Source: Octopus sinensis | Lineage: Eukaryota | Length of the DNA: 64,000 nucleotides | Direction of reading: 5' to 3' | NCBI RefSeq assembly: GCF_006345805.1 | Contig: NC_042997.1 | Location: 139,190,001-139,254,000 of the forward strand | Shown here: positions 4,340 to 58,567 of the stretch, one piece after another | How the letters are laid out: each line of letters begins with the position of its first letter | Position numbering within the stretch: position 1 is the stretch's first letter | Program-made: the position numbers and the translations under genes | Notes under the pieces: generated by a model | Database searches by the model: none | Told to the model about the DNA's origin: nothing | Seen by the model: only the letters and a program-made list of their open reading frames with translations

Positions 4340-4545
4340 AAACACATAAATGCGAAACAAGGTGAAAAATTAATAGTCGAATTCCGGAGGTAGAGTAATA
4401 TGTTTTATTAAAAAGCAGCAAAAATGCCTCAAAGACTCAGAGTTTCACGTTCCCGTTCGTCGGACAGTTTTGTTTAGATTTTGTTTAGTTTTGTTTAGTG
4501 AAACTCTGAGTAACAGTATTTGTGATATCTTTGCTGCTTTTTAAT
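4340..4545. mobile_element. Fold-back insert with hammerhead-like motif (probable Penelope-like element terminal-repeat remnant)
   Basis: Inverted arms ~4407-4448 and 4498-4545. Minus strand reads ctgt-CCGACGA-acg-ggaa-cgt-GAAA-ctctgag-T; plus arm reads GAAA-ctctgag-TA-acag. Confidence 0.6.
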
Positions 4546-4550
4546 GATGA

Positions 4551-4807
4551 TGACCCCCTTCGGTCAGACACTGACCATGGGTTTGCACCTAGAGAGTTAC
4601 CCTCTGAGGCACAAGTCTGGGCAAGGTTGTTTTATAGAAGACCAGCAGTCGCCCATGCATGCCGGCCTCCCCTCTCCACGTCACCGATGTTGTCCAAGGG
4701 AAAGGCAAGGGCCGATACAGCTTGGCACCTATGACGTTGCAACTCATTTCTACAGCTGAGTGAACTGGAGCAACGTGAATTAAAGTGTCTTGCTCAAGAA
4801 CACAACA
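4551..4807 (-). mobile_element. tRNA-derived SINE family C, head missing
   Basis: Matches the full copy at 45901-46233 (gtgttcttgagcaagacact..cactcagctgtagaaatgag..gaccgaagggggtc). Confidence 0.8.
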
Positions 4808-5446
4808 CTTTTTAATAAAGTGTATATAAATATATATGTCTGTGTGTGTGTTGTGTGTGTGTGTGTGTGTGTGAGAGAGAGAGAGAGTGTGTGTGTGTGT
4901 GTGTACAGAAATACACGCACACACACACACTCACTCACATACACTGACATCTATCTATCTAATTAGCTATTTATCAGTTTCTCTCTCTCTCTGTCTCTCT
5001 CTGTCTCTCTCTCTCTCTCTCTCTCTCTTTCTCTTTCTGTCTTTCATCGATCTATCTATCTATCTATCTACCTATTTGTATATGCGTGTGTATAAAAATT
5101 TGATTTTAGAAACGAGAGAAATAAAATTCAATACATAAAACAGAGTATTTATATTTTTTTCTTACTCGAGGAGTGACATAGACTTAAGAGCGTACAGTTT
5201 CACGCCAATGATAAGTGCTCTGGCACTAAACTGTAGACCCCTTGAAACAGCGTCGCTCCTGAATTAATGAAAAATATATCAGTGTATGCGTTCGTAGGTT
5301 CCGCTTTCAATCTGACTCTATGGCAACTTGGGAAAATGGTCATCCACTATAGCTCCGAGGTGAACAAAGTTTTGTGAATGGATTTCGTAGACGATAACAG
5401 AATGAATACCCACGTGTGTGTGTGTGTGTGTGTGTGTGTGTGTGTG

Positions 5447-5602
5447 TACTAGCGTAGCTAGAGTGTGTGCCGCCCGGGGCCGACCTTCAGTTTCCGACCG
5501 CGGGCCCCACGAAAAAAAATTTGCTTACAGCAAACTCCATAAAAGTGCCGCCCGAGGTGGACCGCCCCCTCCACCCTCTTGCTCCCTCTGGCTAAGCTAG
5601 TG
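5447..5602. mobile_element. Short GC-rich MITE, probably hAT-related
   Basis: Imperfect TIRs tactagcgtagctagag / ctctggctaagctagtg. Internal repeated gtgccgcccg motif. Inserted in (TG)n, so the TSD is ambiguous. Confidence 0.55.
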
Positions 5603-5636
5603 TGTATGTTTGTATGTACGTATGAACGTGCGTATA

Positions 5637-5922
5637 GGGTAAATACCCCACTTCGGTCATGATTGACCGTGAGTGGGTTTGCACAAGTCCGGGCAAGGTT
5701 GTTTGTGGAAAAACCAGCAGTCGCCCATGCATTCCAGCCTCCACTTCTCACTGCCGTTGATGTTATCCAGCTTGGCACCAGTGACGTCGCTACTCATTTC
5801 TACAGCTGAGTGAACTAAAGCAACACGAAGTAAAGTGTCTTGCTCAACAACACAACACACAGCCCGGTCCGGAAATCGAACTCACAACCTCATGTAACTG
5901 TTCTAACCACTAAGCTATGCGC
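5637..5922 (-). mobile_element. tRNA-derived SINE family C
   Basis: Head ggcgcatagcttagtggttagaac..gagttcgatttccggaccggg, with the same body as 45901-46233. Confidence 0.8.
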
Positions 5923-54780: not shown

Positions 54781-54940
54781 TACGACGGGTTTCTTTCAGT
54801 TTCCGTCTACCAAATCCACTCACAACGCTTTGTCGGCCCGATGCCATAGAAGACACTTGCCGAAGGTGCCATACAGTGGAATTAAACCCGGAACCATATG
54901 GCTGTGAAGCAAGCGTCTTACCACACAGCGCCGCCTGCAC
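54781..54940 (-). mobile_element. Family A SINE, 5' half
   Basis: cgacgggtttctttcagtttccgtctaccaaatccactcacaa..cacagcgccgcctgc. Confidence 0.8.
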
Positions 54941-56464
54941 CTATGCATATATACCTATCAGCACAAAGTATATTGGTGGAACATTCTCATCAAAACCTCT
55001 ACAAAATTCAAATGTAGCAGATCTGACATAGTTGTTTGAGACATAAAGCTTTGTATTGTCATGGAAGGTAGATTTTCTGCAGCTGTGAACAACTCTTCCA
55101 AAATCAGCGAATTCTCATGGAGTCGTACGCACACTGTCGGGAAATGTGGCGTGTCTTGGGATTTAAACACGAAGACTATTCTTCCTCAGCTGATTACAAT
55201 CTATTGTTCGCAGAAAGAGAATGTACGGACGAAAGCGCGAAGTATCGACACCGGTACTGAACTGGTACTTTATTTATCGATCCAGAAAGGATGACAGGCA
55301 ACACTGACCTCCACCTGATTTGAACTCAGAACGCAGAAAGAAGGTATGAATGAATGCCGCAACACCTTCTATCCGACTCTCTAAGGAACCAGCCAGTTTT
55401 CCGCCTTAGTTCACTTACTGAAATTCAAGTGCAAAAAAAAAGTGCACTGGAAAGTAACTATAGGATTTGCATGAAATGAAATGAGAAATGTGTCTTAAAA
55501 ACTTAACCATTCAAGGAAAGATAAATTATCTATACAGACAGATACTGCAAGCATCTAAATATGATACGTGTCTGAAAAAAACTTAAATGTATTAACGACA
55601 TCATTCCCAGAGCTAACAAATGATTATACGAAAAGAAATAAGCTGGCAAAATGAATAAGAAATAAACTTCTTGTGCAACATCAAGTCGCGAGATAAAAAC
55701 TTGCTAAAATAAGAAATATTGAAAAAGAACTGAAATATAAAGTTTTTTTGATGTTGGAAATGATCACACCAATTCACAATAAAAGAAGCAGGTCACTTAC
55801 CGATAACAAGTTCGTATCTCTCAACTCGTACTTCCCACTTTGAGCATTGCAGGTTCGTATTTCTCACCTTGGCCCAAAACTAAAATACTGGAACGCATCC
55901 GAGAAAGTTAGTTATTGAGAAAGCGTCTGTATAATCGCTCTGCTTGACAGAAATAGTAGTCAAATCTCCCTCATATCACACACATTTTAAAATAAAAAAA
56001 AGGATATATCAGACAGTAAGACCTAGATAAAATATGTCCGAAAAAAAAAAAACAGAAACGGAATTATCACGGTTAAAATATCTTTGACCATAAGCCTGCA
56101 GGGTAAAATACTGACATAAAAGCTAAGCAACAAAGTAACAACAAACAACTGAATGAATGGGTTTCAACTGAAAGATCTTGAGATATTAGAACAACTCTAT
56201 CTGGCTCTTTGTCGGTTACGACGCTAAGTGTTCCAGCTGATCCAATTAAAGGAACAGCTTGTTCGTGAAATTAATGTGCAAGTGGCTGAGCACTCCACAG
56301 ACACGCGAACCCTTAGCGTAGTTCTCAGGGACTTTCGATGTGACACACCGAACGTGACAAGGATGGCCTATTGAACTACTAGTACAATTCATTTTTGCCA
56401 GATGAGTGGATTGGAGCAACGTGAAATAAAATGTCTTACTCAGGGATACAACGCGTAGTCAAGT

Positions 56465-56680
56465 ATCGAATTTTATTCAACTGAATGCACGTCATTGATT
56501 GGTTGAAATTACCGAAATAGGACTACTTTAACGTGAAATTACTTCGTAAATATAAGTTTTTCTCAAAAATGCTAAGAGTAAAAGATGTTTTATATGACAC
56601 ATTCTACCAGTGTCCGAAGTTTGAAAGTGTTTAGTTACAAAAAATATTTTTTAAATCTGTAGGTCAAAAGGTAAAGATCC
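56465..56680. mobile_element. Fragment of a DNA transposon related to the 28478-28834 element
   Basis: Ends in aaagatcc. ttctaccagtgtccgaagtttgaaagtgtttagttac resembles the reverse complement of 28521-28558. Confidence 0.55.
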
Positions 56681-56685
56681 GAATT

Positions 56686-56897
56686 CAGCGAGCTGGCAGA
56701 AACGTTAGCACGCCGGGCGAAATGCTTAGCGGTATTTCGTCTGTCTTTACGTTCCTAGTTTAAATCTCGCCGAGGTCGACATTGTTTTTCATCCCCTCGG
56801 GCTCGATAAATTAAGTACCAGTTGCGTACTAGGGTCGATCTAATCGACTAGCCCCCCTCCCCAAAAATTTCGGGCCTTGTGCCTATAATAGAAAAGA
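56686..56897 (+). mobile_element. Family-B SINE
   Basis: gcgagctggcagaaacgttagcacgccgggcgaaatgc..gataaattaagtaccag..ccttgtgcctataatagaaa. Confidence 0.88.
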
Positions 56898-57767
56898 ATA
56901 TAGAAATTTTCTGCTGATATAATCAACTGCTTTCAAATCTAGCAGTGACAAATGATAACCAGGAGCTTCTATGTGGTGTCTAGATCGGCTAAAAGTAGCA
57001 GAGAGATTATCAGCAAATTACACTCCACCGTTTAATGAAAAACAATAGAGATAATGAGTCCAAGGTATACACAATGAAGAAATGGTTTCGACTTGAATGC
57101 TGTTGCCTATAGGTCTTCTTAATCAGGTTTAGCCAGTGGCTAAACAACAGCAGCAACAGAACCAGCAGCAGAAACAACAACAACAGCAGTAGCGGCACCA
57201 GTAGCGGCACCAGTAGCGGCAGTAGCAGCAATAAAGAGAAGTGACACCGATATTCATTGGCAATGCAGTCAACAAGAATTCGCTGTTGCTGATAAGATTA
57301 AGATAACAGGCTTCCGTCTGTAAAGCCGTTCTCTAATCAGCATACTCCAGCCTGGCAACAATGATGTCTGTATGATAGACATTATATAATGTTGTAATGA
57401 CAGGTGCGTGGCCTAATGGCAAGGGTGTTGCCCTCGCGATAAAGAAATCGTGGTTATCGATTTTGGGGCCGGGCAATACGCTGTGTTCTCGACGAAACAC
57501 TTCATATCACGTTACCCAAAAATTACTTCGACATTGGACCTGTGGCACACTGTGCATCTATACAGACAATGCCAATTTGTCACAATAAACAGACCATCTG
57601 TGCACGGTTTTTTCAGCAAGAAACTGTGGATTCTTCATCAGTTGTTTACGACAGAAGAGTCCACCATCTCTATGTATATGTGTATATATATATGTATATA
57701 TATAATGTATTTAGTATAGTATTATATAATACACGTACATGTATAAGTGTATATACATATTATATAT

Positions 57768-58567
57768 GTTCTTTTACTTGTTTCAGTCATTTGACTGTGG
57801 CCATGCTGGAGCACCGCCTTTAGTCGAACAAATCGATCCCAGGACTTACTCTTTGTAAGCCTAGTGCTTATACTATCGGGGTTTTTTGCCGAACCGTTAA
57901 GTTACAGGGACGTAAACACACCAACATCGGTTGTCAAGCGATGGTAGGGGGCAAACAAAGACACACAAATACATACATACATATATGTATATATGTGTGT
58001 ATGTGAATATATATATATATATATATATATATATATATATGTGTGTATATATATTTATATATATATATACACATATATGTGTATTATGTGTATATACATA
58101 TAAATACAGTGTACATTTAAACACATAAGAGGCATCCATCATAGGACTCCTTGCACGCTAGAGAGAACAGTTAAATTCCAAACCACTATTAGAGATAGAA
58201 TTTCGAAGGGAATGAAATAAGAGGCATCCTATGATGGATGCCTCTTATGTGTTTAAATGTACACTGTATTTATATGAATAATATATAGTCTATTGACTAA
58301 ATGTTTACAAGCTAGGCCACTGGTAATGGAAATTTCTAATATTTCTGATTACCCTTTAATATATATATATATATATATATATATATATATATATATATAT
58401 ATATACGACGAGCTTCTTTCAGTTTCCATCTACCAAATACAATTACAAGGTTTTGGTCGGTCAGAGGCCATAGTAGGAGACACTTGCCCAAGGTGCTACG
58501 CGGTCGGACTGAACCTGGAACCATGTGGTTGAGAAGCAAGCTTCTTACCACACAGCCACTCCTGCGC
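57768..58567 (-). mobile_element. Family A SINE interrupted within its internal (TA)n by a fold-back insert
   Basis: 3' half at 57768-57970 and 5' half at 58404-58567, in the same orientation. Confidence 0.8.
58097..58360. mobile_element. Fold-back insert in (TA)n
   Basis: 50-bp perfect inverted arms 58097-58146 and 58227-58276, a nested hairpin at 58217-58248, and a unique tail to ~58360. Confidence 0.6.

Follow-up and report, generated by a model that had tools for sequence, protein, structure and literature searches.

Fold-back inserts at TA tracts of an octopus genome as probable 5′-truncated copies of hammerhead-bearing Penelope-like retroelements

Introduction

Penelope-like retroelements (PLEs) occur as partial tandems with an adjacent inverted, 5′-truncated copy and a one-sided tail; they carry hammerhead motifs and show a bias towards (TA)n targets, and an octopus family of the Hydra clade is among those listed (PMC8557442). 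Minimal PLE hammerheads are of type I, with a short or palindromic helix III and an extra base 5′ of stem II, and are found as opposite-strand motif pairs 100–700 bp apart, with great diversity within single genomes (Cervera and De la Pena 2014, PMC4209133). Palindromic junctions and TATA boxes in the pseudo-long terminal repeats (pLTRs) have also been reported, together with a proposal of antisense self-priming and a call for tests (PMC3846280). Here we analyze seven fold-back inserts in a 64,000-nt stretch of the 2.72-Gb Octopus sinensis genome (contig NC_042997.1; G000:C1:139190001-139254000), hereafter the window, and show that the families behind them share the layout of such elements.

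The closest described systems are the Hydra and Neptune/Nematis PLEs. Members of the Hydra clade (Hydra-1_Obim, Penelope-13_HM; Craig et al. 2021, PMC8557442) combine DKT and RWK-like motifs, CxCX5C, a C-terminal GIY-YIG domain and (TA)n targets with a 3′-end hammerhead, present once per strand in the inverted truncated copy, and a one-sided tail; the same features mark our families 1, 5 and 6. These differ by eye from Hydra-1_Obim, have 3′ UTRs of ∼1.2–3.3 kb and end in tails of 50–115 nt, compared to 30–40 bp in the Hydra clade. In addition, the family 1 core has C4, whereas every Hydra core tabulated in the available text of PMC8557442 reads CTGANGA. Families 3 and 4 share with Neptune/Nematis PLEs (CX2-5CxxC linker) the linker-type cysteines, the GIY-YIG domain, microsatellite targets and a minimal hammerhead with palindromic stem III. 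The core pair is A3-U8 in family 3 and U3-A8 in family 4, the latter described in PMC4209133. The available text of that paper makes no mention of A3-U8 or C4 cores, and a literature search found no paper using the term A3-U8. Families 2, 6 and 7 have stem II inserts 45–75 nt long, unlike the minimal hammerheads of PMC4209133. Active Penelope families are counted in an octopus repeat annotation of 2026, whose main text does not contain the word ‘ribozyme’ (PMC13282606).

Results

A first-pass annotation of the window had described about seven inserts, each with inverted arms and a unique extension, in or beside (TA)n tracts. All seven are present as described, and each is composed of an inverted arm, a sense arm and a one-sided tail, at a TA-rich site. 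They were also said to be mutually unrelated, and blastn indeed detected no similarity among the seven. The (TA)n setting holds at the tail end, where TA tracts lie in seven of seven cases, and fails on the far sides of insert 1 (not TA) and insert 2 (few TA, then (TG)n).

None of the inserts is single-copy. A genome-wide search returned 2323, 1440, 1691, 2595, 810, 1187 and 2532 first-look candidates for inserts 1 to 7, respectively, of which 40 per insert were scored; these totals are not copy numbers. Exact motif matches, counting both arms, numbered 2794 for family 5 and 1918 for family 6, with 0 for the controls. Copies of a family have a fixed tail end and a fixed inner AT-rich stop of the inverted arm, and the position of the fold varies. 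Among the first 100 matches for family 5, we found 36 divergent pairs, 30 to 7489 bp apart; for family 6 there were 30, spanning 135 to 5845 bp. A TA repeat directly follows the tail in 125 of 130 family-5 records and 35 of 37 family-6 records (overlapping loci kept). The fixed terminal inverted repeats and single conserved unit of a miniature inverted-repeat transposable element (MITE) or fold-back DNA transposon are not seen; instead, tails are one-sided and folds variable, and the pLTR is accompanied by a partial tandem and an inverted 5′-truncated copy. We conclude that each of the seven inserts is almost certainly a 5′-truncated, PLE-derived copy of a different repeat family whose termini are laid out as in PLEs. 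Not every copy of family 3 is folded: matches on the opposite strand that suggested this traced back to the second arm of the query itself, and only some copies fold. In an old family-3 copy (locus L002, ∼1500–1835), several CpG-type changes are common to both arms, which suggests a decayed source or conversion between arms.

Five of the seven families lead upstream to a PLE-type GIY-YIG or reverse transcriptase (RT) frame, identified by motifs: three of Hydra type (1, 5 and 6) and two of Neptune/Nematis type (3 and 4). RT and endonuclease (EN) are both seen in families 5 and 6, thumb, linker and EN in families 3 and 4, and EN only in family 1. These data bear out the annotation's view of inverted truncated pLTRs from many TA-targeting families of Penelope-like origin. 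As to its alternative of remnants or non-autonomous members, most are remnants of autonomous elements rather than fold-back units that propagate themselves; family 7 alone looks non-autonomous, with a unit that repeats in tandem and is not the hairpin. As to the further suggestion that density and core diversity look under-described, the layout in general is not (PMC8557442, PMC4209133, PMC3846280).

The evidence is most complete for family 5. The insert-5 end is present at 14 of 16 loci picked via the family-5 protein, and in long copies the frame ends ∼3.2 kb upstream of the hammerhead. At locus L311, the open stretch runs for 652 codons and includes DKT, RT motifs, CxCX5C and a GIY-YIG domain, and L325 shows the tandem order of TATA, hammerhead, tail and then the ATG of a frame with RWR and DKT. 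RWR, DKT and the linker CNCPDKTTC are the Hydra diagnostics of this family. For family 6, a 734-aa frame at L260 with RT motifs, CxCX5C (linker CKCRIKSKC) and GIY-YIG lies upstream of the insert-6 end, and L260 is colinear with L257 at 97% over 3.9 kb; N-terminal motifs were not seen. Between RT thumb and endonuclease, this frame (L260:2371-4575) is rich in asparagine over a long stretch, similar to inserts reported in rotifer Penelope elements. Family 1 has a Hydra-type GIY-YIG in 3–4 of 30 loci, ∼1.2–1.4 kb upstream in L441, L453 and L460, with a degenerate linker.

For the two linker-type families, the evidence comes from shorter pieces. A same-strand GIY-YIG occurs in seven family-3 loci, is of linker type and ends ∼260–390 bp upstream in six of them; in the seventh, the endonuclease ends 20 bp upstream, after a deletion. 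The family-3 protein is 31–57% like two Pfam GIY-YIG-positive neighbors. Family 4 gave weak same-strand GIY-YIG matches in 4 of 30 loci, with a 300-codon open thumb-linker-endonuclease stretch in L533, where a CX4CX2C linker accompanies GIY-YIG-like motifs. We tentatively place both families as Neptune/Nematis, clades marked by a CX2-5CxxC linker and a CCHH-type endonuclease, without telling the two apart. Frames in L235 and L237 lie near insert-5 ends but are not those of family 5, the L235 copy being truncated well before its frame; they are 33–58% alike over matched pieces and served as GIY-YIG and RT probes. The L235 frame (L235:1384-4560), beside the truncated family-5 copy, is of Neptune type and almost complete, though split into several pieces.

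Several results weigh against these assignments. Neither Pfam nor PDB recognized the Hydra-type frames, hhalign comparisons to the Pfam-positive RT and GIY-YIG pieces were weak (probability 7% and 21%, respectively), and for families 2 and 7 no frame was found. Because the Pfam, PDB and profile comparisons were non-committal, clade assignment rests on motifs matched by eye to published Hydra proteins. The homologues, 802 in number, are unnamed.

Three of the inserts belong to the Hydra-type families. Insert 1 (4338..4545, minus strand) is the 3′ end of such a family, with a tail at ∼4338–4406, arms at 4407–4448 and 4498–4545 (the latter inverted) and a hammerhead core CCGACGA, a U4C variant, at 4463–4457 on the minus strand; the 3′ strand of stem I is gone from this arm. 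Insert 5 (43287..43489, minus strand) is a short fold-back of a young Hydra-clade PLE, with its tail at 43287–43350 and a palindrome at 43351–43489 that folds at AGCT into a tail arm (43351–43420) and an inverted arm (43421–43489). The inverted-arm hammerhead (43418..43468, plus strand) has an intact type I layout, with a 6-bp stem I, CTGAAGA, a 4-bp stem III and a UA site, and is mirrored on the minus strand from the core at 43415 to the site at 43378. Insert 6 (54428..54716, plus strand), also the 3′ end of a young Hydra-clade PLE, has a palindrome at 54428–54602, a tail at ∼54603–54716 and a hammerhead reduced to its GAAA-CGATCG-TA half, from 54550.

Inserts 3 and 4 lie on the plus strand and are 3′ ends of Neptune/Nematis-type PLEs, that of insert 4 being linker-bearing. 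Insert 3 (33662..33975) has a palindrome at 33662–33923, a tail at ∼33924–33975 and a plus-strand hammerhead with stem I TGTC (33807–33810), core ATGATTA with its A3-U8 pair (33811–33817) and GAAA (33826–33829); stem III is broken in both arms. Insert 4 (40822..41120) has a palindrome at 40822–41043, a tail at ∼41044–41120 and, on the plus strand, the core TTGAAAA (U3-A8 pair) at 40940–40946 with a 3-bp stem I. An old relative of its family at 11032..11213 (plus strand), absent from the first-pass annotation, is 74% identical, lacks the inverted arm and has a decayed hammerhead. The remaining two inserts are cut 3′ of the hammerhead, and in both the inverted arm extends beyond the tail arm in the 5′ direction. 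Insert 2 (14943..15180, minus strand), the 3′ end of a hammerhead-bearing family, has arms at 15022–15059 and 15143–15180, the inverted arm as a whole covering 15060–15180. Insert 7 (58093..58358, plus strand; palindrome 58093–58280) is a piece of a head-to-tail unit of 472 nt devoid of open reading frames (ORFs). Inserts 6 and 7 both lie in the TA tract of one abundant repeat resembling a short interspersed element (SINE; 54783–54940 and 58406–58570). This repeat seems to be a landing pad, and the same neighbor stands beside many family copies.

Longer copies of all seven families have the type I hammerhead layout. The commonest cores are CCGACGA in family 1 (39/82), CTGAGGA (15) and CTGAAGA (13 of 33) in family 2, ATGATTA in family 3 (20/30), TTGAAAA in family 4 (68/79), CTGAAGA in family 5 (179/197), CTGATGA in family 6 (25/27) and CTGAAGA in family 7 (32/39). 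Core positions 3 and 8 are complementary across families, as C-G, A-U or U-A. The claim of full or partial hammerheads in five inserts proved correct for inserts 1, 3, 4, 5 and 6: they are recognizable with copy-specific breaks in 1, 3 and 4 and reduced to the 3′ half in 6, and only insert 5 keeps the layout intact within the window; 2 and 7 have none. A relaxed type I descriptor matched the window three times (both arms of insert 5 and 9768–9796), compared to 0–1 times in each of 10 shuffles, and the other inserts failed it. Among chosen family representatives, those of families 3–7 passed (0–1 of 300 shuffles each) and those of families 1 and 2 gave no match. One stem I pair covaries in family 2 (GC 13, AU 10 in 25 copies), and this switch is one subfamily event rather than many.

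Other tests were negative. Among the best 150 of 290 Rfam matches there was no hammerhead family, only microRNA-like hairpin noise below gathering scores. Lone motifs, including that of insert 5, in which stems I and III form, folded no better than shuffles. When whole inserts were folded in silico, the arms paired with each other and sequestered the hammerhead, and because of this predicted pairing hairpin copies would hardly act as ribozymes. Of the idea that hairpin transcripts carry ribozyme motifs in both polarities, the motifs on both strands are found in insert 5, and the predicted arm pairing would hide the ribozyme. Such transcripts may also be ADAR or Dicer substrates, as the annotation suggested. 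The further descriptor match (window 9758–9806, plus strand) has a 10-bp stem I (G-U counted), core TTGATAA (U3-A8) and a 2-nt palindromic stem III, adjoins no TA tract or inverted arm, and may be an old PLE remnant or chance. In hammerhead loop III at L230:3149 (UAG context), an A-to-G change reaches ∼14–16% of contig depth in runs X4 and X10, which we guess to be RNA, compared to 0.01% in run X16 and 0 in X1; it could be editing or an allele.

A genome-wide pattern search found 554 short family-5 fold-backs. We analyzed the junctions of 48 of the first 50 short records, the two left out both being of the commonest type. Twelve of the 36 divergent pairs fold within 30–41 bp, and only four more are <600 bp. 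In the short class, oriented junction strings take 20 forms, spread over three haplotypes that are also present in long copies; at a loop-III variant, the two arms match each other in 39 of the 40 records that could be scored. Given the many junctions, the long-copy haplotypes and the agreement at loop III, these hairpins appear to have been made anew, and the fold likely arises afresh at insertion rather than being inherited.

The boundary of these arms is sharp. None of 96 arms reaches the natural T 5′ of AGCTTC, although the search pattern permitted it, and the boundary is the first base of hammerhead stem I, with TATAAAT at –29. In the 51 arms reaching the A of AGCTTC, the preceding base is A in 30, G in 16, C in 5 and T in 0; the A and C cases come from the opposite arm. 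An extra G unexplained by the opposite arm was called in three cases by script (L347 twice, L381) and in two by eye (L346, L387). In a separate public run, a joint to the AGCTTC boundary base has one G between. Based on the sharp stop, the extra G and TATAAAT at –29, we consider it fairly likely that family-5 mRNA would start, capped, at the first base of stem I and that synthesis would run off there. In family 4 the arms end at C|AGAG, and 7 of 13 non-natural junctions have G; family 1 shows a similar stop at a C-A step (G in 7 of 11).

A number of observations argue against this reading. Thirteen of the 16 extra Gs could come from the opposite arm. The family 1 and 4 samples are biased, their queries including or abutting the fold, and are partly explicable by the opposite arm as well; moreover, no TATA is seen at –30 in family 1. 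In family 6, folds do not cluster at stem I (0 of 30 pairs near 208 bp), and a general hotspot at hammerhead stem I was rejected on these grounds. A splice acceptor at TAG|CTTC as the cause of the boundary is not favored, as the arms keep AG.

Family 2 shows no PLE match within 1.5 kb of shared upstream DNA. Family 7 is a closed 472-nt unit with one hammerhead and a longest open frame of 71 aa; the tail-to-head junction is found in 21 of 30 loci and two full hammerhead-spanning direct units in 1 of 30. Its exact motif has 74 matches, too few for statistics on folds. Non-LTR retrozymes are characterized by head-to-tail units that lack ORFs and hold one type I hammerhead apiece, and such units are seen in family 7. 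It also shares their AT-rich composition and single hammerhead per unit (PMC7229834; bioRxiv 10.64898/2026.07.22.740005; retrozymes are also covered in PMC6765202), and differs in its 472-nt length and in occurring mostly as partial tandems with PLE-style inverted arms. As a retrozyme-like derivative, it would be a retrozyme still bearing the marks of PLE insertion.

Microsatellites, SINE-like repeats and broken transposon frames abound in the window. Broken transposase frames at 37395–38263 (inside long inverted repeats), 25682–26398 and 48597–49578 are, by their motifs, presumably Tc1/mariner-like. Broken non-LTR retrotransposon frames with AP-endonuclease-like and RT-like motifs, judged by eye, lie at 16886–19244 and 30066–30647. 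Short MITE-like elements with 40–50-bp terminal inverted repeats occur at 28467–28847 and 12527–12812, the former TA-flanked with telomere-like CCCTAA motifs inside. A 184-bp SINE-like unit is repeated in 4.6 tandem copies, 95% matched, at 2334–3187.

Discussion

The inserts represent new families of known Hydra- and Neptune/Nematis-type PLEs plus one retrozyme-like derivative. Overall, we hold it probable that they are 5′-truncated PLE-type copies whose inverted arm is made afresh by a second cDNA. We propose that the GIY-YIG endonuclease would cut both strands within a TA tract, one cut end priming reverse transcription at the tail end and the other at an AT-rich site 50–115 nt further 5′. 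Both cDNAs would copy sense RNA, and joining of their 3′ ends via microhomology would yield the order arm-fold-arm-tail. In family 5, priming at the 5′ pLTR would run off after ∼135 nt, giving abundant 200-bp palindromes comparable to strong-stop DNA. Such short copies would be dead ends, with paired arms masking the ribozyme.

Parts of this scheme have precedents. For Poseidon PAc (Frangieh et al. 2024, PMC11167929), both strands are likewise cut and extended, with two internal start sites bounding the tail; in vitro, product length is set by the RNA 5′ end and ribozyme cleavage is not required. An untemplated G marks capped templates in L1 and SVA (PMC4859970), and the extra G at family-5 junctions resembles this cap mark. 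The available texts of these two papers describe no inverted arm formed via two joined cDNAs and no PLE cap mark, and a literature search on cap marks or twin priming in PLEs found no paper. The Drosophila Penelope promoter is internal and TATA-less (PMC2377424), and hence PLE promoter type varies. The arms described here duplicate the same region, unlike those of L1 twin priming. In that process, a non-overlapping upstream piece is inverted.

That two independent cDNAs form the arms is, on balance, the reading we lean towards. The main competing idea is self-priming, in which the cDNA folds back or an antisense template primes itself, as PMC3846280 argues from the same layout. Palindromes, microhomology at the folds and haplotypes shared between arms fit this idea, and 4 of 48 family-5 records exactly match a cDNA hairpin at CTTC/GAAG. 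Arm lengths speak against it. Among 47 oriented family-5 records, the inverted arm is longer in 15, the tail arm in 14 and neither in 18; the corresponding numbers for 16 family-6 insertions are 4, 6 and 6, and window inserts 2, 3 and 7 also have the longer tail-less arm. Since a fold-back copy cannot outreach its template, a longer tail-less arm, taken together with the in vitro data on Poseidon PAc, favors two cDNAs. Furthermore, insertion L347 has the extra G on both arms, and both arms end at the same sense-strand base. We therefore regard self-priming as unlikely. Two caveats apply to the two-cDNA reading. Unequal arms could come from post-insertion deletion, which is less likely in copies 98–99% identical. 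In addition, across 24 long family-5 insertions, a shared variant was present in both arms on 30 occasions and in a single arm on 24 (random pairing mean 6.3), the single-arm cases lying mostly in poorly aligned ends.

A second alternative concerns the family-5 stop, which could reflect RT pausing or mispriming caused by the hammerhead fold, with the extra base either copied from cDNA of the opposite strand of stem I or untemplated. The stop does coincide with the 5′ end of stem I, and the stem I 3′ strand, GAAGCTCC, would also supply the extra base; nine junctions could continue it for 3 nt. None carries the GAAGCTCC continuation further, however, and unambiguous cases add exactly one base. 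A TATA box lies at –29, family 6 has a hammerhead but no stop, and in families 1 and 4 the arms stop at a pyrimidine-A step that precedes stem I by several bases. This account seems to us as improbable as self-priming.

It is far less probable that the 200–300-bp hairpins are non-autonomous elements moving as whole fold-back units from a few masters. Family 7 is ORF-less, and the 40 best insert-5 matches are 98–100% identical with the same fold, a fold that makes up 15 of 48 short records. Those matches were ranked by likeness to the folded query, however, and unranked listings show many folds, which largely refutes a fixed-fold, non-autonomous family 5. Long copies carry the same haplotypes, which are also found with several junctions, the arms share a haplotype, the outer arm ends vary, and the family 7 repeating unit is a direct tandem rather than a hairpin. 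Finally, single-base indels in many copies suggest a noisy assembly, but fold-back artefacts of sequencing or assembly can be dismissed: tail and arm ends are fixed, TA lies on either flank, the arms have diverged in old families, short copies number 554 and, in a separate run, 22 contigs have loose ends that look like the inverted arm at the fold base.

Taken as objects, the inserts amount to ordinary PLE debris; their worth lies in the junction data. These bear on how inverted PLE ends form, a process whose later steps PMC11167929 left unvalidated. With ∼550 near-identical junctions, a sharp boundary and the extra G, family 5 opens both the RNA start and the two-cDNA model to testing. For ribozyme work, the families provide natural core variants, to which families 1 and 3 would add C4 and A3-U8 cores. 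A-to-I (adenosine-to-inosine) editing is extensive in octopus, and this octopus genome holds thousands of long perfect hairpins. We put forward tentatively, and as a little more doubtful than not, that the family-5 palindromes are a record of PLE replication in vivo, involving capped mRNA that begins at the first hammerhead base, a dimeric enzyme that primes from both cut strands, two cDNAs made on two sense RNAs and each running off the cap, and 3′-3′ joining. If true, such a process would account for the inverted pLTR and the tail in every endonuclease-bearing (EN+) PLE without antisense templates, and would suggest that palindromic stem III serves to pair the two templates.

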